Source: Promethearchaeota archaeon (GTDB lineage: Archaea; Asgardarchaeota; Thorarchaeia; Thorarchaeales; Thorarchaeaceae). Taken from it: a stretch of DNA of 64,000 bases. The stretch lies in NCBI GenBank assembly GCA_048940045.1, contig JBHLOX010000001.1, positions 33,598 to 97,597 of the forward strand, written 5' to 3'. A program made the translations under genes and the position numbers. Below the pieces are notes generated by a model. That model searched no databases. It had not been told where the DNA came from and worked only from the letters and a program-made list of their open reading frames with translations. Positions 22,581 to 56,420 of this stretch are shown one piece after another (position 1 is the stretch's first letter; every line of letters begins with the position of its first letter).

Positions 22581-22649
22581 CACATTGGTAACCTTCAATA
22601 GCAAGCAGCATCAAGTAACGAAAATAATCACGAGGTCATTGATTTGAGA

Positions 22650-35850: not shown

Positions 35851-35917
35851 ATTCTGTTTAACAATCTCATATAGTATTAAAAATGTAATATACGAGCTCA
35901 TCTTGAGGCTGGCAAGG

Positions 35918-36796
35918 ATGGATATCGAAGGAATTGTCATTTTTGATGCCGCAGCAGGTATTCCTCTCTTTTCTAGGATGAAGACGAAGATTGATCCCTC
36001 ACTATTTTCCAGCTTCATTTCCGCCATCGGTCATTTCACAAAGGAGCTCCATTTCGGAGGTTTGTCTTCATTCACCACTGAGGAGAAAGTGATCTATTTA
36101 GCTCCAAGAGACAAGATTATCACAGCACTAATCGCTCCCAAGAAGAAAGAGTATCAGATGGCATATTCCTTGGCAAACGAGCTGGGAAGGCAGTTCGAAG
36201 AAATTGGTGGAACCTCGAACATAGCTCAAAGAGATATATATCATGAGTTCGCAGAAGTAGCTGATCAGTATCTCAGGAAAATTCAGAACCCATTCCTAAC
36301 TAGAGTTTCGGAGTTCATTCAAAGCGAGTACTCGGGAGAGGTATCCGTTAGACCAAACCTAATGAAGCGTGATGGCTCACAGGGAACTGTGGATCTGCTG
36401 ATTGATACTGGTAAAAAGAGCACTGATGGTGCAAAACAGACTGGTAAGTTTGGAGAAAACTACAGCTTTGTCAAGGTAATAGATTCAAGAGTGCGTAGAG
36501 TTCATGTCATTGATTTCATTGACACTCTAGATAACTTTGGAGTCCTTGTAATGAAGAAGGACGAGATGATAGTACAACCGTACTTCCCAGCAAGAGCCAT
36601 AATTGTAGGAAGAGAGTATGACCCAGAGGCTATTGAATTCCTCAAGAAACTTCCCAAGGGCAAGATTGGGAGGTATGTTGATGGTGCCTACGTATATGCG
36701 GGTCTCAAACTAAAGGGCATCCCAAAAGAAACACGCTGTGTAGTTGATGTTTGGCTGTGGCACGATGATATTAAGCCAGAACGTGTCGAATTCTAA
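35918..36796 (+). CDS. Protein with an N-terminal longin/roadblock-like alpha/beta domain and an unknown C-terminal domain
   Basis: MDIEGIVIFDAAAGIPLFSRM...DPSLFSSFISAIGHFTKEL..GGLSSFTTEEKVIYLAPRDKIITALIAP follows the longin/roadblock regulatory-domain pattern. The ORF is open from 35807, but ATG 35918 follows an AT-rich stretch and avoids overlap with the upstream gene. Confidence 0.4.
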   Translation: MDIEGIVIFDAAAGIPLFSRMKTKIDPSLFSSFISAIGHFTKELHFGGLSSFTTEEKVIYLAPRDKIITALIAPKKKEYQMAYSLANELGRQFEEIGGTSNIAQRDIYHEFAEVADQYLRKIQNPFLTRVSEFIQSEYSGEVSVRPNLMKRDGSQGTVDLLIDTGKKSTDGAKQTGKFGENYSFVKVIDSRVRRVHVIDFIDTLDNFGVLVMKKDEMIVQPYFPARAIIVGREYDPEAIEFLKKLPKGKIGRYVDGAYVYAGLKLKGIPKETRCVVDVWLWHDDIKPERVEF

Positions 36797-39365: not shown

Positions 39366-40550
39366 ATGGCGGAAGTTCTCACAAAACCATCCAGACGCAT
39401 CAGGAACATGGTTATGAAAGAGCTTCGGCTGATAATTAAAGACAAAGTTGCCCTCTTACTTATTTTCCTACTTCCCGCTGCACTCATCGGGATGCTCTGG
39501 TATGTTACTAATGAGAGCAGCTTGGGAGGGATGGGGATGGGTGGTGGAACTGGTATAGGCGGTGGGGATGATATTGGTAATGAAACAGTCACAGAGGATG
39601 CTGTTAAATTAGGCATTGTGAATCTTGACGAAACCAGAGGCTATTATGGAGAAGAAATCCTTTCGGATAACCTAACGGCGTTTTTTGAAACAATGGCGAA
39701 TGTAACGATGTTTAACACTACAGCTGATGCGTATCGGGCTTTGTACGAACAGCAGATTGATGCTTACATTGTGATTCCAAATGGTTTTGAGTACAACCTT
39801 ACAGAGAACTTTCCAACATATATCGAGGTTCATTATGATGGAAATGACCTCTTTGGATCTGCAGCCATTCAAGGAATTGTTCAAGCTGGAACAATCCTGT
39901 TCAGAGCTTCCAAGCTCTGGATTCGGTCTGAGGTGTTCCCAGGCGTAATTATCGAGTTCACTCCGGAGGGAGGATACCTTGAAAGTGTGTTTGGTGGATT
40001 CATCGTCATTTTCTCAAGCTATCTCGGAATCGCCATGACTTCAGCCCAGTCAATTGTAGGTGACATACCATTACGGAGAATGCTACTCACACCAACTAGT
40101 AGGCTAGAAGTCGTTGTTGCGAAAGTGATTGGATATGTGATCATTGGATTTTTCCAGTCACTCCTATTGGTTACACTGTGGGTCCTTGCGTTCAATCTCA
40201 GTCTGAACACGAGCTTCATCTCGCTCGTAGTCATCATGAGTCTGAGTTCGCTAACAGGATCTGCCACAGGGATTTTGATCTCAGCGGTTGCGAGTACGAG
40301 ATTGCAGGCGAATCAGATGTTTCTCTTTGTGCTATTTGGCACCCTTATTCTCTCAGGGTTCTTCCTTGATGTAGGAATCCTAGATAGAATTCTTCCAATG
40401 AACCAAGGACTCAACCTCTTAATTGACACAGCATTCAAGGGACTCACACTTCTAGAGGTAATAGATAGAGTCCTCACACTTTTCGGATTTTCAGCCATAG
40501 CAATTCTGACTGCTACGTTCGTATTCTCAAAGAAACCAACACTGGGTTAG
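39366..40550 (+). CDS. ABC-2 type transporter permease
   Basis: One N-terminal TM helix, a ~170-aa external loop, then five C-terminal TM helices. This is the ABC2_membrane_3-type topology. The stop abuts the next gene's start. Confidence 0.75.
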   Translation: MAEVLTKPSRRIRNMVMKELRLIIKDKVALLLIFLLPAALIGMLWYVTNESSLGGMGMGGGTGIGGGDDIGNETVTEDAVKLGIVNLDETRGYYGEEILSDNLTAFFETMANVTMFNTTADAYRALYEQQIDAYIVIPNGFEYNLTENFPTYIEVHYDGNDLFGSAAIQGIVQAGTILFRASKLWIRSEVFPGVIIEFTPEGGYLESVFGGFIVIFSSYLGIAMTSAQSIVGDIPLRRMLLTPTSRLEVVVAKVIGYVIIGFFQSLLLVTLWVLAFNLSLNTSFISLVVIMSLSSLTGSATGILISAVASTRLQANQMFLFVLFGTLILSGFFLDVGILDRILPMNQGLNLLIDTAFKGLTLLEVIDRVLTLFGFSAIAILTATFVFSKKPTLG

Positions 40551-42242
40551 GTGATTCTAAAGATGCTTCAAGACATAGACCGATTGGATTCGCATGATGA
40601 AGAGAAACCAGTCTTTGTTGAAGAAGGGTACTTCTCTGGTGCTCGGATGGGCGAAGCCATTGATTGGTGTATCACACGGCAAGATCGTGAGCTACATTGT
40701 GAGGTCGAAGGAAAGCTGACTTCAACGGGTAAAGAGGTGAAGTTCAGAGGGCGAATCCTGAAGGTCAAGAAAGGAGTCCTGACACGTCGGATTGCTGTAT
40801 ATGTAGAGGAGGACCTTCGGAGACAACGAGCAGGAGAACTTGACAAGGTTCTCACTGTTGGAGGTGAGGGAACAAGTCAGGAGGATGTAGCGGCCGCTCA
40901 AGTCACTGTACAGAACTACTTGAAGAGAAACATGGCTGATGACCTGTACTATGATGGTAGAGACCTCCAACAGGCTGTGAAGGATCTAGAGAAGATGAAG
41001 AGTCAGGAAATAGAGTGTACGGTTTGGGGTCGTAGAGGTTCTGATAAGACCATGATCATGATTAAGGGAACAGTTGTTGGCGCAGCAACAAGACCGGCCC
41101 CAATTCTGCCAGAGGGGACTCTTGAGGTGAGAGTCGCTCCTGAGGAGGAGGTGGGAGACCCAAAGATCTATCTGATTGCACAACCTCAACTTCTAATTGG
41201 GCCCAGTTACAACCCAAACCTCACTGTCGTTGCTGACAAGGTCTACATTATTCCATTTGCTTGGAAACAGGCTCCTGAATACAGAGATGTCCTTGCAGCC
41301 AGAAACCTTACTGTGACCATTAAAAGTGGAAAGAGACTCATCGAGAATGTATCATTCTCTATGCGGGAAGGAGAGATGTTAGCTATCATCGGTGAGTCTG
41401 GTGCTGGTAAGTCAACCACGGTGAAAGCACTGATTGGTGACATCCCAAGTACAGGTGTTGCCAGAATAGCTGGGATTGACTCTCGACAAACACAGAAGGT
41501 TCGGCACTTTTTCGGATACTGTCCGCAAGACCTGTCATATATGTATGAAACCTTCACCCCTCTCGAGAACATCATTGCCTTTGGAAAACAATACGATATT
41601 CCTGAGTGGCAGCTCATTCAGAGAGGAAAGACACTCTTGAGGGACTTTGGCATATTGGAGAAAGGAAATAATCCCACAAAGAAGCTTAGTGGTGGTGAAC
41701 AGAGGCGGGTTTCTGTTGGTATCGCACTCGCCCACAAGCCCAAAGTACTCCTAATGGATGAACCGACTTCAGGTTTAGATCCTGACAACAGGAATGAGCT
41801 TTGGAGCTATCTCACCTACATCAATCAAGAGTATGGAACATCAATTGTTGTCATTACACATTATCCAGTCGAGTCAGAGTTCTGTGACAAGGTGGCAGTC
41901 TTCATGCGTGGCAAGAGTTTAGTCGCATTTGGAAGTCCAGCGACATTGAAGGAGTCAATGCCCTCCAGAGGATTTGCTGTTGGTATTGTTCTGGAAGAGG
42001 TGGACCCAAGAGCACGTAAAACATTAGAGAAGGTCAAGGGAGTTCGCTTTGTATTGCAGAGAGGAGAGCTCCTCAAGATTTTCACTGATGAACCTCTAGA
42101 AGTGATTGCAGAGAGATGCGTTTCTGCTTTGAAGGAACAGGACATCCCAGTCAAGATTGTGAAGACAAAGTCGGTAGCTGACATGGTAGATTACTATGTA
42201 GCTATTACTCGAGGTCTTATTCAAGGCACTATTGAGAAGTGA
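40551..42242 (+). CDS. ABC transporter ATP-binding protein with an unknown ~260-aa N-terminal extension
   Basis: The C-terminal NBD has Walker A GESGAGKST, signature LSGGEQRR and Walker B VLLMDEPTSGLD. The N-terminal 260 aa show no recognisable motif. An alternative ATG lies at 40563. Confidence 0.85.
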   Translation: MILKMLQDIDRLDSHDEEKPVFVEEGYFSGARMGEAIDWCITRQDRELHCEVEGKLTSTGKEVKFRGRILKVKKGVLTRRIAVYVEEDLRRQRAGELDKVLTVGGEGTSQEDVAAAQVTVQNYLKRNMADDLYYDGRDLQQAVKDLEKMKSQEIECTVWGRRGSDKTMIMIKGTVVGAATRPAPILPEGTLEVRVAPEEEVGDPKIYLIAQPQLLIGPSYNPNLTVVADKVYIIPFAWKQAPEYRDVLAARNLTVTIKSGKRLIENVSFSMREGEMLAIIGESGAGKSTTVKALIGDIPSTGVARIAGIDSRQTQKVRHFFGYCPQDLSYMYETFTPLENIIAFGKQYDIPEWQLIQRGKTLLRDFGILEKGNNPTKKLSGGEQRRVSVGIALAHKPKVLLMDEPTSGLDPDNRNELWSYLTYINQEYGTSIVVITHYPVESEFCDKVAVFMRGKSLVAFGSPATLKESMPSRGFAVGIVLEEVDPRARKTLEKVKGVRFVLQRGELLKIFTDEPLEVIAERCVSALKEQDIPVKIVKTKSVADMVDYYVAITRGLIQGTIEK

Positions 42243-45200
42243 GAAAATGGCAGGCCTGAAACGATCTATAGAACATCTGACACAAAGAGTAGCTGCATAC
42301 CTGCTGGTATGCATCCTCATGGTCAGTGGACTATCGGTGTTTCCACCTGTTGTCGGGATCAGTCCTTACGTAGCAGAACCTATGAACAAGATTGATGAAT
42401 CATTGCTCAATCAGACCTCAATGGATCAGTATCTGGATGTTCTTGTAGGGTACGATGAAGAAGTGGGTGATTTTAAGGCAAAGAACGCTGTTATATTCGC
42501 AGATCGAACAGCAGAGATGATAGATGTCTTTGAATCAATAGGAATGCTCCATGTGAAGATGCTGGGGTCTGCTATTGTGGACTTGGCTAGAGAGGAGTTC
42601 ATCACTAAGATATGGTCAAACGAAATCACTCCAATTGAACAAACACAGACCACAGCTTCTACAATATCATCAACTGAGGACTATGTGCCACTTATTGACA
42701 GAATTGGTGCAAGAGACCTTTGGGATGCTGGGTACAATGGCACTGGTACAGTCATTGCAGTCCTTGACACTGGAGTGGACCCACTTCAGTCTGATTTCAG
42801 TGTGGCTGCTTTTGCTTCCTTTGTTGAGGCAGATACACTGCCTCTTGACCTCATCGGACATGGTACATACGCAGCATCCGTTGCAGTGAGTTCTGGGAAT
42901 ACCTCAGGAGGTGTATATGCAGGTATCGCCCCTGGCGCAACACTGCTATCTGCCAAGGTGACCCTTGGAGGTCTCTTTGCTGCTCCAAGTTGGATTGTAT
43001 CAGGTATTGAATGGGCAAGTAGCAGGGGTGCAGATATCATTCTTCTACCATTCAACACCCTTGGGTCGCCAGATGATGCAGTTTCCAAAGCTGTTGAAAT
43101 CGCAGCGAACAAGGGAATTTTTGTTGTGGCTGCATCAGGTGATGACGGCCCAGACTACCTGACTGTTATGTCTCCTGGTGGAAATGCTGCAGCCTTCTGT
43201 GTTGGTGCATATAACACAGAGTTGCAGGAGATACCAGATTTCTCAGGGAGAGGACCATCACTCTCACTGCTAACAAAACCAGATTTAGTGGCTCCTGGTG
43301 TGGGAGTTGTAGGTGCTAAACCATTTTCAGGTCTTGCAGGTCTTGGATTTGGCGACATTGGTCTTGGAGACCTAGGCGACCTTGGTGGACTTGGAGGTCT
43401 CCTAGGAGGCTCTATTGGCGAAACATACGATGAGAATTACACTATTGCAGACACTACAGCTGCCTCTGCAGCCATCACTGCAGGTGCCGCAGCAATTCTA
43501 CTCCAGGCGTTCGATAGGGTCCATCCAATCACTCTTGCAAATGTTCTCCGAGATACTGCATCCCCTATTGGCTATGGTGCCAATGATGGAGGGGCGGGTC
43601 TTCTCAATCTTCAGGTGGCATTTGACTATTTGAGTACACAACAGACACCAGGGGATCCACATGTTCGAACAACAAGTTTGCCTTTACTTGCACTAGGCCT
43701 TATCACTGCAACTGGGACTGACGCTTCAACTTCGATGCTGATGAGTAGTTTTGGAACTACCCTTGTAGCACTGGATCAACGTAATCCCCAAGACTCAGGT
43801 ACTCACCTAATGATGGGAATGTTCTCGCTGAAATGGAACAACGAAGATCCTACAAACCTGATGATGTTCGATGTGAAAAGTGAGTTTCATCAAGTTGTGA
43901 GTGCATCAAATACAATACCTTACAACCGGTATGTTGGGGTATTGTCCTACAATGATTCGATCTATGTCACCTTCCTTGTAGAGTCGTATAATCTCACAGA
44001 ATACTCATCACTTCCTCTTACAGCATTTAGAGTAACACCATTCATTCTCAATCTTGATGATGAGCCAATTGCCAATGTTAGTCTCTATGTTTCTTACTCA
44101 CTTGATCTTTATCTCGATGGTGAGGATGACCATGGAAAATATGACCTTGATAACCAGCAACTCTTTGCTTACGGTCTCTCAGAGAGTTACGGAAACTTCT
44201 ACGTGGGCATGAACTCAAGCATCCCACTTTCAGGATTTGAGGTTGGTAACTCATCAAACATCGCAAGTCATGTTTCAGACAATAATCTGACTGGATCCAC
44301 CGTATTCGACGGAGATGTCGGTTTGGCAATGCAATGGGACTTTGGGACTTTGGATATTGACGAGCTCGTCAATGTGACAATTGCCATGGGATTTGGAGAG
44401 AACCGCACAATCCTGGATGCGTCAATCGACGCTATGTGGGAGAATGACATTCCATCTGGGGCCTTAGATCAGGGGGACCTCATTGTTGTCGAGGTGGATG
44501 TTCCAAGGATAGCAGAAGCAGGTCATACATATCAATCAAAAGCTGTCATCATGAACATTGGACAGGAGAACTCAACTGCTATTGGAGCAATGCTTGTTGT
44601 AGAGGGCACTGTTGAAGACGGAACTATGTTTGCGAGATACTTCAACTATGATGTTCTTGAACCCTTCAAGGCCAAGGTATTGGTGACTGACTGGCGACCT
44701 GAAACAGAGGGAGTAAGAACAGCAGCTTGGGCTGTTTCTACAGGTCTAGATCAAATAGTTGGTCTAATATCTGACCCAACAGGTGCTATACTGACCTCAG
44801 GAGTGGGGCTATTGGATGATTTCATCATGCGTGATGTCTTCATCATCGACCCCATATCGTCAAGCTCTGTGTTCCCAAAGCAACTACCCTTCGCACCATT
44901 TGACATCAGATTTCCAGCAGACTTTGGACTCTATAGCTTTGTTTTGTCAACCACAGAGTCACTAGGAAATATGACCATCTCAAACCATGGAAACGCATCA
45001 GACTGGGGTAACATGTCCCTTACTAGTGCAGAAACAATAGAGGGATTCTATGACTTCTCAGGTTTCTTTATGGCACCGCCTATTGGTATGGATGGGTATC
45101 ATAGATGTGACTATGTAATCGAAACAGACTATGGATGGACCACAAATATCACGTTAGAAAGGGTAATAGAGTATCCGCGCGCAATGATGCTCCTTGATAC

Positions 45201-46620: not shown

Positions 46621-47620
46621 TGTGGGAAAATCAGAAACTAGAGAAACACATCGAGAGATTGACATCATAGACCTCCAGGTTGCTTTTGGTAAGTTCTATG
46701 CACTCAAGGGAGTGTCATTCTTCGCAAACAAGAGGGAGTTTCTAGGGATCATTGGAGCATCGGGAGCTGGAAAAACAACAGTACTCCGAGTTCTCACTGG
46801 GCAGATAGGTCCCACTGATGGTCAAGCCTTTGTCGGTGGGTATGATGTCACTAAGAAGTCCAAACTGATCAGTCTACTCGTTGGCTATGTTCCCCAGCTA
46901 GAACACCTGAGCCTATACTATGATTTCAACTCAATTCAAAACGCCCAGTTCTTTGGCCGCATGTTTGGTCTCAGGCCAAAAGAGATTGAGGAACGTGCGA
47001 GGAATGTCCTTACAATCCTTGGATTCGATGAAGACCTCATAACAAAGAGAGTAGACAGGCTCTCAGGCGGAGAGCGCAAGAGGGTGTCAATCTGCCTTGG
47101 GATGATCCATAATCCGCCTGTGCTCTTACTTGACGAGCCAACCACTGGTCTGGATGCACACCTCAGACATGAAACACTGAACTATCTGAAGGAGCTCAAC
47201 TACGAGCTGGGCACGACCATGGTCATCATCAGTCATGACCTAGAGATTGTTGATTACTGTACGCGAGTGTGCCTTCTGGAAGAAGGCAATGTGAGTCAGT
47301 TCGGAACTCCAGAAGAACTGATCTCGACACTCCCTGGGAGAGGAGAGAGCATCCGAGTAGCGCTCCACGCGATGACACCAGAAATCATCAGACGGGTGAA
47401 CTCACTTCCAGGAGTACAATATACTGCACAAGCTGGCAGGAAAGCAATGAAGCTGTTCATAGACAATCCAAGTGAACAAATCTTGCCAATCATCCATAAA
47501 CTCAACGAAATGAAACTACCATTTGAAGAGGTCAGTCTCGTTGAGGCAGACTTCTTTGACTACTTCCAGGTGAAACCCTGGAAGCAAATTCCTAGAGAGA
47601 TAGGAGGAACCGCAACATGA
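46613..47620 (+). CDS. ABC transporter ATP-binding protein (second NBD of the operon)
   Basis: Walker A GASGAGKTT, signature LSGGERKR and Walker B VLLLDEPTTGLD. It overlaps both neighbours (an ATGA junction at 47617-47620). Confidence 0.85.
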   Translation: MCDVGKSETRETHREIDIIDLQVAFGKFYALKGVSFFANKREFLGIIGASGAGKTTVLRVLTGQIGPTDGQAFVGGYDVTKKSKLISLLVGYVPQLEHLSLYYDFNSIQNAQFFGRMFGLRPKEIEERARNVLTILGFDEDLITKRVDRLSGGERKRVSICLGMIHNPPVLLLDEPTTGLDAHLRHETLNYLKELNYELGTTMVIISHDLEIVDYCTRVCLLEEGNVSQFGTPEELISTLPGRGESIRVALHAMTPEIIRRVNSLPGVQYTAQAGRKAMKLFIDNPSEQILPIIHKLNEMKLPFEEVSLVEADFFDYFQVKPWKQIPREIGGTAT

Positions 47621-50600
47621 AGACCTATCATGTGATCATAGCCCTACTGGTCGTCTGCGCGCTTGCAGGATTGCAGGTCCAAACGACAAACACGGGTACT
47701 CAACCCGTTGTAATCACAAGTCCTCAGGTTCAGCAAAATCCACATGCTCTCGCAGAGATCGCACCGTTCAACACGGCCATTGTGTGGTCAAACACAACGG
47801 GCAATCAGGTTGTGGACCTTGTTGTCGACAACTTCGATGCGGATGTGCGAGATGAGGTTGCTGTCATCGTTCAGAATGGTTCTTTGTTCCTGTTCGACGA
47901 CGACAGCTCACTATTGTGGAAACTGAAGCTTGGCTCGACACCACACGCACTTGCCTCTCTTGATGGCACCGCTGCTTCAGGTCAGGAGATGCTCGTTGGA
48001 ACAGACTCTGGCATTGTCGTAGTTGGAGCTGACAAGACTGTTCAGATGAACATGTCACTCCCTGAGCCAGTGTATGCTGTTGCTGGTGGTAATTTCGATG
48101 CAGATGGATTTGAAGAGGTCGTTGTGGGCTGTGACGACTTCTACGTCTATGCATTCGAGATTGACACCACTCCACTCTGGAGCTATCTCAGTAATGGTAG
48201 AGTGCGGCTGGTTGCTGGTGCGGACATCGATTCTGATGCTCGAACGGAGGTAATAGTAGCCTCTGAGGGAAGGCGGTTCACCCTCTTACAGGACACCGGT
48301 GCGGTTGTATTCGAGAAGAGTAGTGGCACAGCAATCACTGTCGTTTCTCTGGGCGATCTCACTACAGCGACAAACTTGGATGTTGTATTTGGAAACAGTA
48401 ATGGAACACTCAACATCTGGTATGATACCGGTATTCTGGCGTACAACTTGCAGGTTGGAAACCGTATCACTGCTCTCGAGGTGGGTGACCTCGTCACTGG
48501 AGGACGACACGAGCTTGCCCTCGGGACAGACAGCAATCAACTCAGGGTATACGACTCAGGTGGAACTTTCCTTTGGAACAAGACACTCACAGGGCAACCC
48601 AACAGTATATTGTTCCCCAATATCGGTGCGACTCCGAACGCCCAAGTTCTGGTGGGGATTCCCAACACCCTCAGGCTCTACAACTCTACTGGTTGGTTAG
48701 TAAGCTCGGTCAATGCTGCTGGCTTCTCCAGAGCCTTGAGCTTTGGAGACCTCGACAACTTCGGTGGTCAGGAGTATGTCTTTGGCACTAATGGAGGGCA
48801 AGTCTCCGCATACGGTCGGGACTTTGATGGTGAAGGACTAGCAGATGCGCGTGAGATCCTTATCGAGGGCACTGCTTACGATGACCCAGACAGCGATAAT
48901 GACAATTTGAATGATGCAGAAGAGGTCCTGGATTATGGGACCAACCCTCTCGCACCAGACTCGGACTTTGACAAGCTGTCTGACTTTGCAGAGGTCAGAA
49001 CATATGGCACGGACCCCAACCTAAAAGATACCGACTCTGACAAACTCACGGACTGGCAGGAGATATACCTCGGCACGGACCCGAATCAGGCAGACACTGA
49101 CTCGGACTCACTCACAGACTATGAGGAGAACAACATCACCCTCACCCTTCCCACAGACCCTGACAGCGATTCCGACGATATCAATGATGCACAGGATGAT
49201 AATGATGGGGATGGTCTCACTAACATTCAGGAGGTTCGTCTCTCCAAGACAGATCCCAACGATGTTGATACAGACGGAGATCTGACCACGGACTATTACG
49301 ATGACCAAGATGGCGACAACCTCGCCAACTGGAAGGAGATTCAAATCGGAACAGGACTTTATGACCCAGACAGTGACGATGATCTTCTCAATGATGGGTA
49401 TGAGGTGAAGACCAGCAAGACCTCCCCCTTGAACGAGGACACAGACTCAGATTCGCTCACTGACTATGAGGAAGTGATGATTGTCCATTCAGACCCGCTC
49501 AAGGCGGACGGGGACGAGGATGGGCTCAGTGACTACGATGAATATGTCGTCTATGGGACCGGGGTCTTGGACAGTGATAGTGACGATGATACATTGAAAG
49601 ATGGGGCTGAGGTCAACACCTACTTCACAGACCCCTTGAACAATGACACTGACTCTGACAATATTTCAGATGGACTAGAGGTCAACTTCTGGGGTTCAGA
49701 CCCCAATTCTGCAGACACTGACCTTGATGGTCTGAATGATTACTTGGAGTGTTATGTGTGGAACACCAATGTGACAAAAAGTGACACAGACGGAGATTCG
49801 TTGGGAGATGGGCTAGAAATTCTCACCTATGGAACAAATGCCACTCTTGTGGACACAGACTTTGACCTGATTCGAGACCCTGATGAGGTAAAGTATCTCG
49901 CCAATGGTTGGGACCCAACAAACCCCAACACCTTTGACGCTGGCACCTTAGACGGAAATTGGGACTTTGATGGAGATAGGTTAACGAACTATCAGGAAAT
50001 CTATCTGACGAGAACAAATCCAACATTATTGGATTCCGGAGGGTTGCCTCTCACTGATGACCTTGAGGACAGTGATCTTGACGGACTGAACAACTATGAT
50101 GAGTTGTATGTAACCTTCACACTTCCGAGGAATCCAGACAGCGATGAAGATATGGTCAAGGATGGAGATGAATGGAGTATTCTAGGAACTGACCCGAACG
50201 ATGAGGACACCAATGATAATGGTGTGTCAGATTATGATGAAGACTTTGATGATGATGGGCTGAGTGATGGTATTGAGCTGTATATCACTCATACCAAGCA
50301 TAACGTGACAGATAGTGATAGCGACACAATCTCAGACTATGATGACGATGAGGATGCTGATCTCCTACCAAACTGGTTCGAGGTCGAAATGACTGGTACA
50401 GATCCCTTGTATAATGATACAAACGACAACGGGACTTTCGACTGGGAGGAAGACCCCGATAACGACGAGCTCAACAATCTTGAGGAGTTTCTAAATGATT
50501 GTGACCCTCTGGCTGCAGACACTGACTTGGACCAGCTGACTGATGGAGAAGAGGTGCTCTACACCCATACAGATCCCACTGACAGCGACGATGATGACGA

Positions 50601-53600
50601 TGGAATTCTCGATGGACAGGATGACCTAGACAATGACGGTCTCACAAACCTCGAGGAACTCAGGACTTACGACACAAACGTCACCCTCTGGGACACTGAT
50701 GGAGATCGCATCCGGGATGGCCTCGAGATCGATGTGGGTCTCAATGCTACAAATCCAGACAGTGATGGCGACGGTCTATACGATGGTTGGAACGACATCA
50801 TTCCCAACGGCATCTATGAGCCTCATTTGGGAGAACGAGGCGAGGATGTCAACGCAAACGGTGTTGTTAATGTGGGAGAGACCTCACCATTCGAAGCTGA
50901 TAGTGATTTTGATGGATTGGATGACTATGAGGAGTACTCCTATGGCACATCGCCTACAAACGATGACTGTGATGATGATGGTCTATTAGATGGAGAGGAG
51001 ATAAACGACTATGGAACTAATCCTCTCAACAACGACACGGATTCTGACCTCCTGTCGGATTACATTGAGGTTGAGATTACCCTCACAGACCCGAACAACA
51101 TGTGGTACAATGGGACTCACACAGACTACATGATTGATAGTGATGGTGACATGTTGACCAATGGTGATGAGATTGACATCTATGACACCAGTCCTGGAGA
51201 CTTCGATAGCGACAATGACAACATTGGCGATGGGATGGAAGTACTCGTCTATCTCTCTGACCCAAATTCGAATGACAGTGACGGAGATGGACTCTTAGAT
51301 AACGAAGAGCTGTTCTATGGTACGGAGATCAACATACAGGACACTGATGGAGATCAGCTGGATGATTTCGTTGAAATTGAGTATCTCGGAACAAATCCAT
51401 TACTCCCATCCACATACATGAACGGTACCCTTGATGGAGACCTAGACAATGATGGGGACGGGCTCAGCAATGCAGTCGAGATCTATGGATACCACTCAAA
51501 CGCTACTGCGAAGGACAGCGATTTAGACGGTCTAGAAGACGGATTTGAGGTGTTTACGACAGGTACATCACCCACCGACATGGATAGTGACAATGACCAG
51601 CTCAGTGATTATGATGAGTACATGATATACCACACTGATCCAAGTGGCAGTGACAGTGACTCTGATGGTCTTGATGACTATACTGAGGTCTATGTTTCAC
51701 TCACCACACCAACCTCCTGGGACAGCGACGGAGATACCTTGTCTGATGGACTTGAGTGGAATGACTACGGGACAGATCCAAATTCAATAGACAGTGATAA
51801 CGACCTCCTAAATGACAATGTCGAATTGGACATTGGAACTGACCCTCTGCTTAATGACACCGACGGTGATACCCTTTCAGACTGGGAAGAGTGGATTCTC
51901 TATGATACCGACCCGACAGAAGCGGATATGGATCAAGATGGACTCAATGACGCAGAGGAGCTAGAGAACGGTACAGACTGGGAGAATTGGGATAGTGATT
52001 TCGACACCCTCAGTGATGGAGATGAAGTGAACATCTACGAAACCTCACCCATTGACGATGACACCGATTCTGACAACATCGCTGATGCAGATGAGCTGTT
52101 CAACAGCCATACCGACCCACTGCTTCTTGACACGGATGGCGATTCGATTCCTGACGACTTAGATGATCAAGATGCTGATGGCCTCACCAATCATGATGAG
52201 ATTTACCTCTATGAAACCAACTGCACAATGATTGACACAGATCTAGATTTCCTGAGTGATTATGATGAGATTTTCATCTGGGAAACATCACCCACCAAAT
52301 TTGATAGTGATGAGGACTCCCTTGGAGATTGGGACGAACTCTTCTACTGGTCAAGCGACCCCAATGATAGAGACAGTGACGGAGATGGTCTTGAAGACTC
52401 AGAGGAGGCCTTGACATTCCACACACTCCTGAATAGTACAGACTCTGACATGGACAATGTGAGTGATTATGATGAAATCAAGGTCTTTGAAACGGATCCT
52501 CTACATTGGGATACAGATTCTGATTCTATCTCAGATGGCGACGAACTGTACGTGTACAACACCTCACCCCTACGCAAAGACACTGACTCAGACAAACTTC
52601 TCGATGGACAGGAAATACATGGATTCTACATGACCTTCAACATAAGCGGTGTTGTGAGTAGTCGATGGGTCTACACGAACCCAAGAGTGGGAGACACAGA
52701 CCTCGATACACTCACTGACTTCGAAGAAGTGAACATGACTAACACTGACCCAACACTCTTCAGCACTCAAGGAACCACGATATCAGATGCAGATTGGGAT
52801 ATTGATGGAGACCTCCTGACCAATGCACAGGAGATTCGCCTCACACGAACCGACCCTCGTGACTATGATAGCGACTCAGATGGAAAATCAGATGGTGCTG
52901 ATGATGAGGACAGAGACCTCCTCACTAATTACTGGGAGTGCGTGCTGACTGAAACTGACCCGAGAGACCCGGACAGCAATGATAATGGAATCTCGGACTA
53001 CAACGATGATGAGGATGGAGACACCCTATCAAACGGAGAAGAGTGCAAGGTTTATGGAACAAACCCACTAGAACGAGACACCGATAATGACGGTCTCGAC
53101 GATAACGAGGAGATTGAGGACTGGGGGATTGATCCTCTTAACAAAGACAGTGACGGAGATGGTCTTGAAGATGGTCCAGAGGTCAACGATTGGGGGACAA
53201 TGCCTGACTCGAATGATACTGATCAAGATTGGTTGAGTGACTGGGAGGAAGTTGTCCTCACCGGCACCAGTCCAACAAACAACATGACGAATCCAGGCAC
53301 CCCTGACAGACTATGGGACAGTGATTCAGATGGTCTCTCAAACTGGGATGAGCTGAGAGTCTGGTTCACACTACCCAATGACCCAGACTATGATAACGAT
53401 GACCTCATTGATGGACTTGAGGTGACTCTGGGCACAGACATCAATGGAACAGATACTGACTCGGATTTGCTGACAGATGGAGAGGAGTATCTGCTCTATG
53501 ATACTGACCCCTTGGAGCCAGATAGCGACCTTGATGGTCTCGACGATTACGAAGAGGTAATCACGTATGAAACTGACCCGAATGAGGAGGACACCGACTC

Positions 53601-54438
53601 AGATGAGATTAGCGATTACGATGAGGTCTTTGGAGTCAATCCACTGGGAATCCCAACAGACCCGCTGGAGGATGACGGAGATTTCGACGGACTGACTGAT
53701 TACGAGGAACTCTTCATCTACGGGAGTTATCCGAACTCACAGGACAGTGACGAGGATGACCTCAGTGATTTTCTAGAGGTCACGGAGTATCTCACTGAAC
53801 CGATGAACAATGACACAGATGGAGAAGGACTCCTTGATGGTGCAGAAATAAATGTCTATGAAACAGACCCGCTGCTGGAAGACAGTGATGGCGATGGACT
53901 AGACGACTATACAGAGGTCATGGTGCTGGGCACAGACCCGAACAGCAGAGACAGCGACGGAGACGGAATCATGGATGGTCAGGACTTTCTCCCGATGATT
54001 CACTGGATATTCCCGATTGCGGGACTTCTGGTGCTGGGGTTCGTGGTCGCAGTGGGCGTGAGGCGGTTCAGAGACAGGTACATGGTGGAGGAATTCGTCA
54101 CCAAGGCAGAGCCTGCGAGCCTGGGCCTAGAACCGGGCATGGACATCGCGGTGGAGTACAAGATCCGTGGAGGGCGAGTGATATTCGGAGTGGTTGTGCG
54201 GAACGGTTCTGACAACCCAATGCAGAACGTACAGGTGATACTGGGTGTGCCAGACCTGACTGACGCAATCAAGACTGAGAATTTGGGTGCAGTGGAGCCA
54301 GACACGGTCTCAGTGGCTGAGATCGAGTTCGAGCTGCAGCCTGGCGCTGAGGGCGAGCTTGTTGGCATGGTCGAGTACGACAATGTTGAGGGTGAACACA
54401 AGGTCGTGAACCTGAAGCCGGTCAGGATTGTGGCATAG
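47617..54438 (+). CDS. Giant (2273 aa) type-I membrane protein: signal peptide, FG-GAP/VCBS beta-propeller, very long thrombospondin type-3-like Ca-binding repeat array, TM helix, cytoplasmic beta-rich tail
   Basis: The N-terminal hydrophobic leader is followed by FG-GAP-like blades (VDNFDADVRDEVAV, GNFDADGFEEVVVG, GDLDNFGGQEYVFG). Dozens of D-x-D-x-D-type repeats follow (DTDSDKLTDWQE, DTDGDSLGDGLE, DSDGDGLLDNEE and others). The TM helix IFPIAGLLVLGFVVAVGV lies at about 53998-54060, followed by RRFRDR. The tail is 125 aa (54061-54435). Confidence 0.9.
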   Translation: MKTYHVIIALLVVCALAGLQVQTTNTGTQPVVITSPQVQQNPHALAEIAPFNTAIVWSNTTGNQVVDLVVDNFDADVRDEVAVIVQNGSLFLFDDDSSLLWKLKLGSTPHALASLDGTAASGQEMLVGTDSGIVVVGADKTVQMNMSLPEPVYAVAGGNFDADGFEEVVVGCDDFYVYAFEIDTTPLWSYLSNGRVRLVAGADIDSDARTEVIVASEGRRFTLLQDTGAVVFEKSSGTAITVVSLGDLTTATNLDVVFGNSNGTLNIWYDTGILAYNLQVGNRITALEVGDLVTGGRHELALGTDSNQLRVYDSGGTFLWNKTLTGQPNSILFPNIGATPNAQVLVGIPNTLRLYNSTGWLVSSVNAAGFSRALSFGDLDNFGGQEYVFGTNGGQVSAYGRDFDGEGLADAREILIEGTAYDDPDSDNDNLNDAEEVLDYGTNPLAPDSDFDKLSDFAEVRTYGTDPNLKDTDSDKLTDWQEIYLGTDPNQADTDSDSLTDYEENNITLTLPTDPDSDSDDINDAQDDNDGDGLTNIQEVRLSKTDPNDVDTDGDLTTDYYDDQDGDNLANWKEIQIGTGLYDPDSDDDLLNDGYEVKTSKTSPLNEDTDSDSLTDYEEVMIVHSDPLKADGDEDGLSDYDEYVVYGTGVLDSDSDDDTLKDGAEVNTYFTDPLNNDTDSDNISDGLEVNFWGSDPNSADTDLDGLNDYLECYVWNTNVTKSDTDGDSLGDGLEILTYGTNATLVDTDFDLIRDPDEVKYLANGWDPTNPNTFDAGTLDGNWDFDGDRLTNYQEIYLTRTNPTLLDSGGLPLTDDLEDSDLDGLNNYDELYVTFTLPRNPDSDEDMVKDGDEWSILGTDPNDEDTNDNGVSDYDEDFDDDGLSDGIELYITHTKHNVTDSDSDTISDYDDDEDADLLPNWFEVEMTGTDPLYNDTNDNGTFDWEEDPDNDELNNLEEFLNDCDPLAADTDLDQLTDGEEVLYTHTDPTDSDDDDDGILDGQDDLDNDGLTNLEELRTYDTNVTLWDTDGDRIRDGLEIDVGLNATNPDSDGDGLYDGWNDIIPNGIYEPHLGERGEDVNANGVVNVGETSPFEADSDFDGLDDYEEYSYGTSPTNDDCDDDGLLDGEEINDYGTNPLNNDTDSDLLSDYIEVEITLTDPNNMWYNGTHTDYMIDSDGDMLTNGDEIDIYDTSPGDFDSDNDNIGDGMEVLVYLSDPNSNDSDGDGLLDNEELFYGTEINIQDTDGDQLDDFVEIEYLGTNPLLPSTYMNGTLDGDLDNDGDGLSNAVEIYGYHSNATAKDSDLDGLEDGFEVFTTGTSPTDMDSDNDQLSDYDEYMIYHTDPSGSDSDSDGLDDYTEVYVSLTTPTSWDSDGDTLSDGLEWNDYGTDPNSIDSDNDLLNDNVELDIGTDPLLNDTDGDTLSDWEEWILYDTDPTEADMDQDGLNDAEELENGTDWENWDSDFDTLSDGDEVNIYETSPIDDDTDSDNIADADELFNSHTDPLLLDTDGDSIPDDLDDQDADGLTNHDEIYLYETNCTMIDTDLDFLSDYDEIFIWETSPTKFDSDEDSLGDWDELFYWSSDPNDRDSDGDGLEDSEEALTFHTLLNSTDSDMDNVSDYDEIKVFETDPLHWDTDSDSISDGDELYVYNTSPLRKDTDSDKLLDGQEIHGFYMTFNISGVVSSRWVYTNPRVGDTDLDTLTDFEEVNMTNTDPTLFSTQGTTISDADWDIDGDLLTNAQEIRLTRTDPRDYDSDSDGKSDGADDEDRDLLTNYWECVLTETDPRDPDSNDNGISDYNDDEDGDTLSNGEECKVYGTNPLERDTDNDGLDDNEEIEDWGIDPLNKDSDGDGLEDGPEVNDWGTMPDSNDTDQDWLSDWEEVVLTGTSPTNNMTNPGTPDRLWDSDSDGLSNWDELRVWFTLPNDPDYDNDDLIDGLEVTLGTDINGTDTDSDLLTDGEEYLLYDTDPLEPDSDLDGLDDYEEVITYETDPNEEDTDSDEISDYDEVFGVNPLGIPTDPLEDDGDFDGLTDYEELFIYGSYPNSQDSDEDDLSDFLEVTEYLTEPMNNDTDGEGLLDGAEINVYETDPLLEDSDGDGLDDYTEVMVLGTDPNSRDSDGDGIMDGQDFLPMIHWIFPIAGLLVLGFVVAVGVRRFRDRYMVEEFVTKAEPASLGLEPGMDIAVEYKIRGGRVIFGVVVRNGSDNPMQNVQVILGVPDLTDAIKTENLGAVEPDTVSVAEIEFELQPGAEGELVGMVEYDNVEGEHKVVNLKPVRIVA
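48820..53990 (+). repeat. Coding array of thrombospondin type-3-like aspartate-rich calcium-binding repeats
   Basis: The period is about 11-13 residues, with a DxDxDxLxDxxE consensus repeated throughout about 5 kb of the giant CDS. Confidence 0.8.
54411..54435 (+). repeat. Copy 1 of a recurring 3'-end motif (cctgaagNNggtcaggattgtggca)
   Basis: cctgaagccggtcaggattgtggca. Here it encodes the last residues NLKPVRIVA of the giant protein. Confidence 0.9.
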
Positions 54439-54522
54439 ACAACTTGCCAAAACACACATAATCTGGAACTCACAACACCAGATTATGGAGGAAGGGTTCT
54501 GAGAGAGATTAGAAGTGCCTGT

Positions 54523-55791
54523 GTGGTCATTCTGCTATGTCTGTTGATGGTGAGTGTTCCACGAGAATCTCACTCAATTGTAACTGAAACATCGGGTACT
54601 GTAATAGCTGAGACCACACATTCACCAATCAATATCACGTCGGAGTCAGATTTCATTTCACTAGGACTTCCTGGTGATGGTTCGCCCACAGACCCCTACA
54701 TCATAGAAGATCTCTCCATCGAGTCAGTTTCAGGTGAGTCGTGCGTCAGTGTGTCAGGAGATATCTCGTCTAATTATGTGATTCGAAACTGTATCATATC
54801 TGGTACGATAATGGGAGAAGGTGATGATATAGCCGCGGCGGGAATATACCTTGGGGCTGGGCAAGGGATTATTGATGGATGTAGAATTTCAGATTGTGAA
54901 ATCGGTGTGGGAATTGAATACATAGAAGATGTAATGATTCAAAACAACATAATCGAAACAACATACAGAGGTGTCGCAATTCTCAACTCAAGCAATGTAG
55001 TGATCGAGGATTGCGAGCTTAGAGGTGGAAATGGTCTATCTTTGAGGTTAGTTAATGTATCAGATGCACTCGTCAGTAATTGCATAATTGATGCAGACTA
55101 TACAATCATCCACGGAGAACATAGAGTGGAAATAGAAAGATGTTCCGTGGCTGGATCGACCATTGCTATTGGGGCTGTTTCAGAAGCGACCATCAGACAC
55201 AACACCCTCACTCGATCAGAAATAACATTGACAGGTTCATCGGAGAACATTGATGTCTATAACAACACCCTTCTCCAATGTTATAACACAGGAATCGATG
55301 TAGGTGCTAATAACTCATTGATTTATGATAACACCATAGAGGGGTATGGTGACTTCAACTACTTTGGGTTAGTTCTGGCTGGTTACGATTGTGAAGTCTT
55401 TGGTAATGAGATCAGCAATTTCTACTATGGTGTTGTTGTTCATTCTACTGGGAATGATATTCACAACAACACAATACACGATTGTTCAGTATGTGGCGTG
55501 GTAATGGTTTCATACTCGTCAGGCAATCGGTTTTACTATAACCATGTTTACAGGAATAAGTTCAACGCGCATGATGATGGCATTAACAACATCTGGGATG
55601 ATGGAATCGACACAGGAAATAGGTGGGGCGATGCATGGTCTGCGCCTTACCAAATAAACGGAAGCGCAAATGCAGTGGACAGATATCCAATCATAATTCG
55701 GGGGTTTGACGTAGCTCTTGCAGTTATACTTACGGGTATAGTAATTGCAGTAGTTGTGATTGTCTTCGTTATCAAGAAGAAGAAAACCTGA
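54523..55791 (+). CDS. Secreted, membrane-anchored right-handed parallel beta-helix protein (NosD/PbH1-like), paralog B
   Basis: N-terminal hydrophobic leader, TDPYIIEDLSIES (compare SDPYRFENLTIAS in paralog A), repeated beta-helix rungs, GNRWGD, and a C-terminal TM helix followed by KKKK. Confidence 0.7.
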   Translation: MVILLCLLMVSVPRESHSIVTETSGTVIAETTHSPINITSESDFISLGLPGDGSPTDPYIIEDLSIESVSGESCVSVSGDISSNYVIRNCIISGTIMGEGDDIAAAGIYLGAGQGIIDGCRISDCEIGVGIEYIEDVMIQNNIIETTYRGVAILNSSNVVIEDCELRGGNGLSLRLVNVSDALVSNCIIDADYTIIHGEHRVEIERCSVAGSTIAIGAVSEATIRHNTLTRSEITLTGSSENIDVYNNTLLQCYNTGIDVGANNSLIYDNTIEGYGDFNYFGLVLAGYDCEVFGNEISNFYYGVVVHSTGNDIHNNTIHDCSVCGVVMVSYSSGNRFYYNHVYRNKFNAHDDGINNIWDDGIDTGNRWGDAWSAPYQINGSANAVDRYPIIIRGFDVALAVILTGIVIAVVVIVFVIKKKKT

Positions 55792-55811
55792 AGTTGGTCA
55801 GGATTGTGGCA
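55787..55811 (+). repeat. Copy 2 of the recurring 3'-end motif
   Basis: cctgaagttggtcaggattgtggca spans the stop codon (55789-55791) of the beta-helix gene. It matches copy 1 at 23 of 25 positions. Confidence 0.9.
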
Positions 55812-55890
55812 AAGAGTCGCTATTACGCAAGACTCAAGACTCTGACCTACCATTATAGTTGATGGAATTGGTGGAAGGCGGAATTGAAAC

Positions 55891-56169
55891 TTGAAGTCCA
55901 GCAGAACCTACCACCCTGCATATTTGTGGGGCTATTTGATGGTCTTTGCCTGTTTCGTAATCATAGCCATAGCTGCGTTGACTGACATAGTTCCCCTAAG
56001 TCTCCAACCTTCGTTTATTTTCCTGATGGTGGCCATCATGATTGCAGGAGGAATAATTGGAATGGTGGGATTCTTCAAGTCCTATGATAAGAGTGCCTAT
56101 CCAGTATTAGTAGTAGTCCTATTGATTCCACTAATATTGGTTCTAATCTATTATCTTACCAGACGATGA
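55891..56169 (+). CDS. Small hydrophobic membrane protein (about 3 TM helices)
   Basis: 92-aa ORF with a TTG start (an internal ATG is also possible). It is almost entirely hydrophobic helices. Confidence 0.45.
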   Translation: MKSSRTYHPAYLWGYLMVFACFVIIAIAALTDIVPLSLQPSFIFLMVAIMIAGGIIGMVGFFKSYDKSAYPVLVVVLLIPLILVLIYYLTRR

Positions 56170-56210
56170 GCTTTCTGAGTAGCAAAATCAGGATCAAGGA
56201 GATGATATTT

Positions 56211-56224
56211 GTCAGGATTGTGGC
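56211..56224 (+). repeat. Copy 3 of the recurring motif (14-nt core gtcaggattgtggc)
   Basis: An exact 14-mer lies 42 nt after the stop of the small membrane ORF. It sits inside a 33-codon ORF (56166-56267) whose ATG overlaps that stop (ATGA). Confidence 0.9.
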
Positions 56225-56420
56225 TCAGTGGACTTTGGCTAACTCACTCAGCATCATCTGTCCATGACCTGACCTCAGCCATAAGAATATCATAACCAGT
56301 CTTGAGGAACGCAAGCATCTCAATGATGCGTACTTCGCTTCATTGCACAAACAGTGATGCATTCAGTATAGACCCCGAAATCGCATTACTTAAGGGTCGG
56401 ATTCGCCTCCACAGCGGAGT

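Follow-up and report, generated by a model that had tools for sequence, protein, structure and literature searches.

A conserved Thorarchaeota operon joining an ABC-2 transporter core to two giant surface proteins: a candidate Asgard-specific membrane complex

We describe a tightly packed operon of five genes in a stretch of 64,000 nucleotides (nt) from a Promethearchaeota archaeon that GTDB places in the Thorarchaeaceae (assembly GCA_048940045.1, contig JBHLOX010000001.1, positions 33,598 to 97,597 of the forward strand). This whole stretch is called the window, and coordinates are those of the window unless another locus is named. The operon encodes an ATP-binding cassette (ABC) permease of the ABC-2 type, two different ABC ATPases and two giant surface proteins, g1 and g2. 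From the comparison of their sequences and neighbourhoods, we tentatively propose that the five products form one Asgard-specific membrane complex, which would be driven by ATP and would act on or through the ectodomains of the two giants. The more general idea that the genes serve a single functional complex appears to us probable. The five genes are as follows.

39366-40550, + strand: perm, ABC-2 permease (open reading frame (ORF) of 394 amino acids (aa))
40551-42242, + strand: atpA, long ABC ATPase (ORF of 563 aa; alternative start ATG at 40563)
42247-46620, + strand: g1, pseudo-subtilase/GIFT surface protein (1457 aa in the database gene call; the ORF 42232-46620 gives 1462 aa)
46613-47620, + strand: atpB, short ABC ATPase (ORF of 335 aa; likely start GTG at 46622)
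47617-54438, + strand: g2, propeller/TSP3 surface protein (ORF of 2273 aa)

An earlier reading, made from the sequence alone, had listed five packed genes on the + strand, and all five ORFs are present. The gaps between them range from -4 to +12 nt across 39366-54438, whichever start codons are chosen. Of the junction overlaps given in that reading, the ATGA shared by atpB and g2 at 47617-47620 is exact, and the others vary with the choice of start codon: the database gene call for g1 (P0001) begins at ATG 42247, 4 nt past the atpA stop; GTG 46622, which lies 1 nt past the g1 stop and is preceded by GGAGGT, is the more likely start of atpB; and atpA may begin at ATG 40563. The spacing recurs across Thorarchaeota loci, with -4 from atpB to g2 in 49 of 55, +1 from g1 to atpB in 47 of 57, and +4 from atpA to g1 in 42 of 75. 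With lengths of 335-2273 aa and homologues of full length in about 80 species, the five ORFs are far beyond what chance would produce. Base composition is uniform over the window, and no tRNA gene lies in it. Domains were assigned with Pfam and NCBIfam profiles, and topology with hydropathy and the positive-inside rule. Every domain type expected from the earlier reading was matched in the profile searches, namely ABC2_membrane_3, ABC_tran (twice), Peptidase_S8, GIFT/ABC_transp_aux, a propeller and TSP3 repeats.

Scanning one genome per GTDB species gave 79 loci, most of them labeled Thorarchaeota, with a few labeled Promethearchaeota, “uncultured archaeon” or “archaeon” and one Hermodarchaeota. 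Homologues of g1 that are 52-89% identical over the full length are nearly all annotated as Thorarchaeota. When the window proteins were compared with these loci by tblastn, the order perm-atpA-g1-atpB-g2 and the strand were the same in every Thorarchaeota locus that was long enough, with the five genes adjacent and tightly coupled. Identities range over 80-97% for the nucleotide-binding domain (NBD) of atpA, 69-96% for atpB, 55-94% for the N-terminal domain of atpA, 61-88% for perm and 49-89% for g1. In g2, the cytoplasmic tail (53-88%) is better conserved than the propeller head (32-81%). As a separate observation, the chromosome of Thorarchaeota bin8 (CP070658.1; loci L053 and L080) carries the operon in two places about 0.47 Mb apart, one with perm, atpA and aa 1-310 of g1, the other with aa 417-1457 of g1, atpB, g2 and the TPR gene described below; this split reflects either a rearrangement through g1 or a misassembly.

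Relatives of g1 are few. In an exhaustive HMMER search of 1.84 billion representative proteins, for which g1 was used without its S8 domain, only 48 were returned (E <= 1e-3). The full-length distant relatives are 22-33% identical, and all the named ones are from Asgard archaea: Ranarchaeia, Helarchaeota, Hodarchaeales, Lokiarchaeia/Promethearchaeia and Promethearchaeota. Their gene neighbourhoods are arranged as follows.

L085, metagenome-assembled genome (MAG), g1 33-34% identical: perm-atpA-g1-atpB-g2 (2196 aa)-TPR
L092-L094: perm-atpA-g1-atpB, without g2 (the contig of L094 stops inside atpB)
L082, Hodarchaeales (by the clustered homologue P0217): atpB-perm-perm-atpA-g1-small transmembrane (TM) protein, then a 1359-aa beta-helix protein
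L089, Promethearchaeota: atpB-perm-perm-atpA-g1-small TM protein
L090, MAG whose g1 clusters at 90% identity with Lokiarchaeia/Promethearchaeia proteins: atpB-perm-perm-atpA-g1-small TM protein
L088: perm-g1, with both ATPases flanking on the opposite strand
L113, L120 and L134: atpB-perm-atpA on the minus strand, divergent from g1
L083/84, L087, L112 and L123, Helarchaeota-like and others: g1-like gene alone

The ABC module thus stays with g1 in other Asgard classes despite the shuffled order, and atpA is directly upstream of g1 wherever both are on one strand. Because this neighbourhood persists through much rearrangement across the classes, the four-gene core of permease(s), long ATPase, g1 and short ATPase bears the classical signature of functional coupling. 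The Asgard-wide core does not include the second giant; g2 was added in particular lineages and is present in Thorarchaeota and L085 and, in a fused form, in Ranarchaeia. Two further features of the distant clusters may be recorded here. A protein of 66-74 aa with two TM helices directly follows the g1-like gene in L082 (14612-14812), L089 (14908-15123) and L090 (15351-15575), and no counterpart of it was found in the Thorarchaeota operon. Genes for Ras/Arf-family GTPases lie near g1-type clusters in two unrelated lineages, at 7778-8311 of L092, directly after atpB, and at 18730-19248 of L083.

The fused form is found in the Ranarchaeia locus L086, where one ORF of 1692 aa upstream of atpA carries a g2-like ectodomain, its anchor and the permease. 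From the N-terminus it runs through a signal peptide, an FG-GAP propeller (aa ~57-400; best profile FG-GAP_3, 77 bits), an MG2 domain, further ectodomain, a TM helix (aa 1273-1291) and a basic linker of ~25 aa into the ABC-2 permease, which is complete (aa 1302-1688) and 37% identical to perm of the window. The fusion has no free cytoplasmic beta-sandwich of the kind that ends g2; the permease is in its place. Since a g2-like ectodomain and anchor are here covalently joined to the permease, the arrangement argues for one physical complex, and no other single observation speaks as strongly for a docking of g2 on the transporter in Thorarchaeota. It also supports the link between ABC module and giant proteins that the sequence-only reading had suggested.

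The transporter core itself is of a familiar kind. The permease matches ABC2_membrane_3 with 96 bits (gathering score 31.6) and ABC2_membrane with 46.8 bits, and hydropathy predicts six TM helices, TM1 followed by a cluster of five. An extracellular loop of ~155 aa with N-x-S/T sequons is predicted between TM1 and TM2. Compared with the permeases of the Hodarchaeales, L089/L090 and Ranarchaeia clusters, perm is 26-37% identical. With a permease of this family with about six TM helices and cognate ATPases that have all their motifs, the core belongs to the type V (ABC-2) transporters. Both ATPases are intact, with Walker A (GxxGxGK[ST]), the Q-loop (PQ), LSGGE, Walker B (hhhhDEP) and the H-loop ([ST]H), and on these motifs both are judged catalytically competent. 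They match ABC_tran with 93 bits (atpA) and 91 bits (atpB), and both NBDs are of the DrrA type. The atpB protein, which has a C-terminal extension of ~90 aa, reaches 182 bits with the drrA subfamily model, under its cut-off, and is 44-52% identical to its counterparts in the other Asgard clusters. The long ATPase consists of two parts.

40551-41285, + strand: N-terminal domain of atpA, ~245 aa, with similarity to the TrmB effector-binding domain
41286-41960, + strand: NBD of atpA (ABC_tran), followed by a C-terminal extension of ~93 aa

The N-terminal domain had been described as unknown and 260 aa long. An extra domain is indeed there, at ~245 aa, and it is no longer without a relative: aa 43-121 match Regulator_TrmB with 38 bits (gathering score 22.2), over the C-terminal part of the TrmB effector-binding domain. 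TrmB is its sole detectable relative, as a profile search against the PDB gave no match and a homologue search with this domain alone returned Thorarchaeota fragments only. Including the N-terminal domain, full-length atpA is 32-43% identical to the long ATPases of Ranarchaeia, Hodarchaeales, L089 and L090, and an N-terminal domain of this type always accompanies g1 across Thorarchaeota, Ranarchaeia, Hodarchaeales and L089/L090. An anti-phage defence system was also considered and rejected, with PADLOC giving only generic fold matches (ABC ATPase to mad3/mad8/AriA, subtilase and TPR).

The first giant, g1, combines an S8 (subtilase) domain with a GIFT domain, with the following features along its length.

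N-terminus, + strand: hydrophobic segment, anchor or signal (hydropathy)
~42739-43581, + strand: degenerate S8 domain (Peptidase_S8, 112 bits)
~43642-45351, + strand: orphan central region of ~570 aa
~45487-46011, + strand: GIFT domain (IFT52_GIFT, 39.4 bits)
between the GIFT domain and the TM helix, + strand: further, beta-rich segment
46297-46368, + strand: TM helix (aa ~1351-1374; hydropathy)
46369-46617, + strand: conserved, helical cytoplasmic tail of 83 aa (topology prediction)

The S8 domain has the subtilisin fold, aligning to the Thermococcus subtilisin Tk-SP (3afg) at 4e-35. The idea of a working protease fails on its active site. In this alignment Ala405 of g1 occupies the position of the catalytic Ser221 and Asp299 that of the oxyanion Asn155; of 112 full-length homologues, 47 have Ala, 59 Thr and only 6 Ser where the catalytic Ser would be, all 112 have Asp at the Asn155 position, and 7 have lost the His. 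More distant Asgard relatives have Ala, Gly, Phe or occasionally Ser at the Ser position, members of the Hodarchaeales/L089/L090 type have Arg in place of His64, and only the most remote match (P0197) retains the full catalytic triad. Judged by these residues, the domain is a conserved pseudo-protease. Because the whole family has lost the catalytic Ser and the oxyanion Asn, and often the His as well, it presumably serves as a binding or structural module. This bears directly on the possibility that the operon is a dedicated secretion or maturation system: either the ABC genes would export the giants by a route like type I secretion, or an active g1 subtilase would process g2 or other surface proteins alongside ABC export or immunity, like LanP/LanFEG. 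An S8 domain does adjoin ABC genes, and the NBDs weakly match type I secretion and bacteriocin-export ATPases. The lost serine (Ala in the window, absent from 106 of the 112 homologues) and the invariant Asp largely refute this possibility, however; each giant begins with a Sec-type signal and has a stop-transfer anchor towards its C-terminus, and the permease is of the ABC-2 type rather than a type I secretion exporter with C39 or membrane fusion protein partners. We consider this explanation very unlikely.

The GIFT domain of g1 is, by its profile matches, genuine at the superfamily level (GldG/IFT52-type). IFT52_GIFT is matched above its gathering score of 27.2, and a profile built from eleven diverse members of the g1 family (A7) found significant matches in the PDB only with IFT52 chains (5fmr, 6e-17; 8bd7, 1.6e-16; 5fms, 2.6e-15). 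The peptide quoted in the sequence-only reading (VFIIAPTEEF...VLGD; aa 1093-1125, nt 45523-45621) falls within the GIFT match. The GldG/ABC_transp_aux-type similarity suspected in that reading is real at this level. ABC_transp_aux itself gives 24.6-27.4 bits in g1, under its gathering score of 34.7, with a two-anchor topology predicted; DUF4350 is also under its gathering score. The distant relative P0174 reaches 35.2 bits with ABC_transp_aux, above the gathering score, and IFT52_GIFT, ABC_transp_aux and DUF4350 score alike in other family members. A profile search with the central region found no relative in Pfam or the PDB, and the cytoplasmic tail has many invariant positions.

GldAFG and the wider “ABC-type uncharacterized transport system” with an ABC_transp_aux/GIFT auxiliary likewise combine a permease of the ABC-2 type with a DrrA-type ATPase and an extracytoplasmic GIFT protein that is anchored in the membrane. 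One conceivable reading makes the operon orthologous to the Bacteroidota GldA/GldF/GldG, or to NosDFY, and gives it the same function. A membrane-anchored GIFT protein does adjoin an ABC-2 permease and ATPase, and both the window and the Hodarchaeales locus L082 have NosD-like beta-helix proteins next to these genes. The scores speak against orthology: with the GldA equivalog (TIGR03522) the two ATPases give 95.4 and 132.8 bits, far under the cut-off of 402.6; no GldF or GldG model is among the NCBIfam matches of perm or g1 at E <= 0.01, nor is there a NosY or NosF equivalog match; NosD_copper_fam gives 33 bits where its cut-off is 300; and the beta-helix gene of the window is an indel absent from all relatives. 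To our knowledge, archaea also lack the type IX secretion system and the gliding partners. We therefore do not retain the term GldAFG-like in the sense of orthology, a relationship that we think highly improbable. The differences in composition are also large. The Asgard system has two distinct ATPases, one with a novel N-terminal domain; its auxiliary, g1, is a protein of 1457 aa with a dead subtilase domain, an orphan region of 570 aa and a conserved cytoplasmic tail; it has a second giant subunit, g2; and its host is an archaeon. In Flavobacterium, GldA requires GldF and GldG for its localisation to the membrane, and a review gives no transported substrate (PMC9127263).

The second giant, g2, is built as a head, a long stalk and a cytoplasmic domain.

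N-terminus, + strand: signal peptide (hydropathy/topology)
~47749-48876, + strand: FG-GAP/BBS-type beta-propeller (BBS2_Mid, PHTB1_N, Beta-prop_BBS7)
~48889-53991, + strand: TSP3-type Ca-binding repeats (62 strict, 80 loose motifs)
54004-54060, + strand: TM helix (aa 2130-2148; hydropathy)
54061-54435, + strand: cytoplasmic tail of 125 aa, seven-strand beta-sandwich (AlphaFold2)

The propeller lies above the gathering scores of BBS2_Mid (47.9 bits), PHTB1_N (38.1) and Beta-prop_BBS7 (34.6), and in the PDB a propeller profile from 29 species found BBS2 at 1e-12, ITFG2 at 2e-10 and, at 3e-8, a haemolysin-related propeller from Vibrio. We would assign it to the broad FG-GAP/BBS/ITFG2 class, with no special ciliary affinity shown. 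The surface apparatus had been called integrin-like. What stands of this is the class of the propeller, which is that of integrin alpha as matched through the BBS2_Mid, PHTB1_N, BBS7 and Itfg2 profiles; the classical FG-GAP profile is not significant in g2 of the window, and the cluster contains no vWA or beta-subunit gene. The Asgard “integrin-like” proteins of the literature are a different family, next to FtsZ/tubulin (PMC9258230). The stalk carries 62 strict DxDxDxxx[DN]xxE motifs, spaced mostly by 23 residues and with 26% D+E, and is probably stiffened by calcium. Across 40 species g2 keeps a length of 2217-2331 aa though it consists mostly of repeats, a pattern that points to a constraint on length and not to an adhesin that expands freely. 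These TSP3-type repeats also account for a match to the model of the Myxococcus gliding adhesin CglD (NF033765), which reaches 322.8 bits over 14 stretches; with a cut-off of 400 bits, we rejected g2 as CglD.

That both giants have cytoplasmic tails, as had been noted, is borne out, and both tails are conserved. An AlphaFold2 model of the TM helix and tail of g2, built from 26 sequences, has a predicted local distance difference test score (pLDDT) of 81 and places the helix before a seven-strand beta-sandwich. Foldseek compares this model with ApaG/PolDIP2, the COPI and adaptin appendages, GAE, arrestin and transglutaminase-type sandwiches (1e-5 to 1e-3); the modelled tail has a fold of the general protein-interaction kind. 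No sequence relative of it came up in a profile search of the PDB, and a homologue search with the tail alone returned Thorarchaeota fragments only. A fold common to this tail and the N-terminal domain of atpA was rejected by hhalign (probability 0.1%). Sequons of the N-x-S/T type are denser in the predicted extracellular parts (1.5-2.0 per 100 aa) than in the cytoplasmic atpA, atpB and TPR proteins (0-0.5); an upstream 781-aa protein, up781, has 0.9. Two side observations concern g2 and its propeller class. In a complete Thorarchaeota genome (CP070761.1; L001/L036, 15398-17749) g2 has only 784 aa, without TM helix or tail, which is probably a collapsed repeat or a frameshift. Elsewhere in the window (16352-18655, - strand), a 767-aa protein with a propeller of the same class (Beta-prop_BBS7, 61.5 bits; BBS2_Mid, 52.9 bits) is fused to a C-terminal Ras/Roc/Arf-like GTPase (Ras, 158 bits); it has no obvious signal peptide and is apparently cytoplasmic, and its pairing of propeller and small GTPase recalls the BBSome and Arl6.

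We suggest the following working scheme. At the core, the ABC-2 permease would be driven by the long and the short ATPase. This asymmetric pair of NBDs, ancestrally matched by two permeases (as in L082, L089 and L090), would engage the tails of g1 and g2. The g1 protein would be a GldG-like auxiliary subunit, single- or double-anchored, whose membrane-proximal GIFT domain and dead subtilase domain may serve as binding modules and whose helical tail probably docks on the ATPase side. As a second, lineage-specific subunit, g2 would present its propeller head on a stalk of fixed length, with the anchor helix and cytoplasmic beta-sandwich docking on the permease or the ATPases. Binding and hydrolysis of ATP in the cytoplasm could in this way perform work on or through the ectodomains; the physical complex in Thorarchaeota, the partners of the tails and the kind of work are all inferred. 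Our preferred form of this work, by analogy with complexes such as FtsEX-EnvC and NosDFY, is inside-out mechanical actuation or assembly of a surface structure, and simple solute efflux seems less likely. Within the reading of one complex, four features give mechanotransmission or assembly our guarded preference: the enzyme domain is dead, the cytoplasmic domains are conserved, one ATPase has a dedicated N-terminal domain, and the length of the stalk is fixed. A model in which a membrane-derived lipid or glycan is exported to the ectodomains, itself somewhat doubtful, is nearly as likely because of the ABC-2 family and the ABCA-like NBDs.

Several points weigh against the proposed ATP-driven surface complex. 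ABC-2 transporters are classically exporters, which favours export, and the established cases of mechanotransmission are mostly ABC systems of type VII and not of type V. The nearest solved NBDs to atpB, those of ABCA3, ABCA4, ABCA1 and ABCA7 (3e-51 to 1e-42), belong to lipid exporters and point the same way. The AlphaFold2 model of the atpA N-terminal domain was unusable (shallow alignment, pLDDT 42), leaving the docking of tails on the ATPase purely inferred. The fusion was seen in a single contig: the second Ranarchaeia contig (L091) stops just upstream of g1, before the permease, a metagenome scan with the fused protein found no close relatives, and a second scan found mostly Thorarchaeota-like loci and new shuffled arrangements but no second fusion. 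Synteny inside Thorarchaeia extends to unrelated flanking genes (up781, a flavin adenine dinucleotide (FAD) flavoprotein and a GNAT protein) and is thus partly inherited rather than selected. Lastly, at least four lineages (L083/84, L087, L112 and L123) have g1-like genes that lack any ABC gene within 9-10 kb.

The last two points would be expected if the link were coincidental or regulatory, with an ordinary ABC-2 efflux pump for a drug, an ion or a lipid co-transcribed with unrelated surface glycoproteins, and ABC-2/DrrA-type modules are indeed common housekeeping pumps. Such a pump would hardly account for ATPase genes interleaved with the giants at junctions of 1-4 nt, for a linkage that outlasts rearrangement across Asgard classes, for the special N-terminal domain of the long ATPase that co-occurs with g1, or for the fusion of a propeller ectodomain to the permease in Ranarchaeia, and we find this explanation improbable.

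A true exporter is a stronger competitor, though still rather unlikely in our estimate. Here, by analogy with ABCA-type exporters and their giant extracellular domains, the ABC-2 core would move a membrane-derived lipid, a lipid-linked glycan or another hydrophobic molecule to the GIFT domain of g1, predicted to bind sugar, and g2, assembled together with the rest, would be a coat or receiver. The permease is of the ABC2_membrane_3 family and well conserved, both NBDs are DrrA-type with the ABCA lipid exporters as nearest solved relatives, the ectodomains are rich in N-glycosylation sequons, and sugar binding has been proposed for GIFT domains (PMC7226087, citing Beatson & Ponting 2004). Against export, there is no clue to a substrate, and genes for glycosyltransferases or lipid synthesis are not conserved in the neighbourhood; it would also leave unexplained the conserved cytoplasmic domains of both giants, the dedicated N-terminal domain of the ATPase and the dead protease domain.

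The proposed complex resembles several known systems in part. FtsEX-EnvC/PcsB/RipC likewise connects a cytoplasmic ABC ATPase, by way of a membrane component, with an extracytoplasmic protein that is folded like an enzyme but does not catalyse. FtsX, however, is a type VII (MacB-like) protein with four TM helices rather than an ABC-2 permease, there is no sequence relationship, and no downstream hydrolase was identified in the Asgard system. In NosDFY, a type V core (NosY and NosF) docks the large extracytoplasmic beta-helix protein NosD and spends ATP on conformational work, not bulk transport. NosD-like beta-helix proteins adjoin the module in the window and in Hodarchaeales, but this partner is not conserved in the Asgard system, which is without NosZ, NosL and copper genes. 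ABCA1/3/4/7 share the type V fold class and have a large extracellular domain after TM1; they are single polypeptides with their own extracellular domains, whereas the Asgard ectodomains are separate single-pass proteins, and the NBD similarity is generic to the DrrA type. The module order of site-1 protease (MBTPS1/S1P), with S8, luminal domains, GATase-like domain, TM helix and tail, is the same as that of g1, and P0174 (L088, 10001-13837) matches Pfam MBTPS1_4th, the GATase-like domain of S1P, with 35.9 bits. It is the only family member to do so; S1P is an active protease, the g1 family profile matches MBTPS1 in the PDB only at E = 0.16, and the central region of g1 has no relative. A claim of kinship to S1P was dropped on the single matching member and this E value.

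The likeness of the g1 GIFT domain to IFT52, and of the g2 propeller to BBS2/BBS7/BBS9/ITFG2, is at the domain level only. The Asgard domains are predicted to be extracellular and the eukaryotic ones are cytoplasmic, and no special ciliary affinity is shown, because other family members give comparable scores with ABC_transp_aux, DUF4350 and FG-GAP_3. A bolder version of the proposal would have the ATPases actuate adhesin-like ectodomains for attachment to partners or surfaces, as an Asgard-specific ATP-powered surface machine and counterpart of integrin inside-out activation or of gliding, with its GIFT domain and BBS2/7/9-type propeller representing the archaeal source out of which eukaryotes recruited their IFT52 and BBSome modules. 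We think that this version is a long shot.

Literature searches that paired Asgard or Thorarchaeota with GldG, IFT52 or BBSome, or archaea with the GIFT domain, found no relevant description, nor did those on Asgard integrins, in keeping with the earlier impression that no characterised system has this composition. An ABC-2 transporter with a GIFT-domain auxiliary is an already known kind of system, functionally obscure; what is new in the Asgard version is the fusion to a pseudo-subtilase, the paired specialised ATPases, the conserved cytoplasmic tails and, in some lineages, the giant propeller-TSP3 partner. Asgard archaea are the closest known relatives of eukaryotes, and the make-up of their surfaces and their contacts with partners are largely unknown. 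Here is a conserved module with delimited components, confined to Asgard archaea among named sequences, for which a natural fusion points to a physical complex. It would offer a second, phylogenetically independent context for the role of GIFT-domain ABC auxiliaries such as GldG, it would place GIFT and BBS-type propeller domains of eukaryotic ciliary trafficking on an archaeal surface machine, and it is a concrete target for cryo-electron tomography, proteomics and heterologous reconstitution.

Two genes downstream of g2 deserve mention.

54523-55791, + strand: NosD-like beta-helix surface protein with a C-terminal TM helix (Beta_helix 79.5, NosD 64.9 bits)
57167-58423, + strand: cytoplasmic TPR protein (TPR families), candidate sixth component, not translationally coupled

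Of the 40 Thorarchaeota loci whose flank downstream extends over ~2.2 kb, 30 have the TPR gene after g2 on the + strand, and in about 20 of these it comes directly, at a distance of 52-174 nt. It also follows g2 in the distant locus L085 and is absent from L082, L089, L090 and the Ranarchaeia clusters. Its product could be a scaffold for the tails of the giants. The beta-helix gene and small membrane ORFs that the sequence-only reading had placed downstream are present, and the beta-helix gene was rejected as a component of the system: tblastn found no match to it in 81 related loci, and 54440-55784 is a strain-specific indel relative to L004, an 89%-identical relative. Both this gene and a 92-aa ORF with three TM helices are missing in L025, and the two intervals 54440-55784 and 55785-56370, between g2 and YhhN/TPR, make up a variable region. 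A second NosD/Beta_helix surface protein, with signal peptide and C-terminal TM helix, is encoded at 22644-23840 (+ strand) and is 24-34% identical to the first; such beta-helix surface proteins are a multi-copy family in the genome of the window.

Upstream, two genes are syntenic with the operon throughout Thorarchaeota. One, at 35807-36796 (+ strand), encodes a 329-aa protein without a Pfam match whose N-terminal part looks roadblock/longin-like by eye; outside Thorarchaeota it was compared with L082 and L083. The other, at 36817-39162 (- strand), encodes up781, which is cytoplasmic and has no Pfam match. Being cytoplasmic, without domain matches and not next to the operon in L085 or in other Asgard classes, it was rejected as a member of the system. 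Finally, a 9-bp inverted repeat (ATAATCTGG...CCAGATTAT) lies just past the g2 stop, at ~54456-54490.

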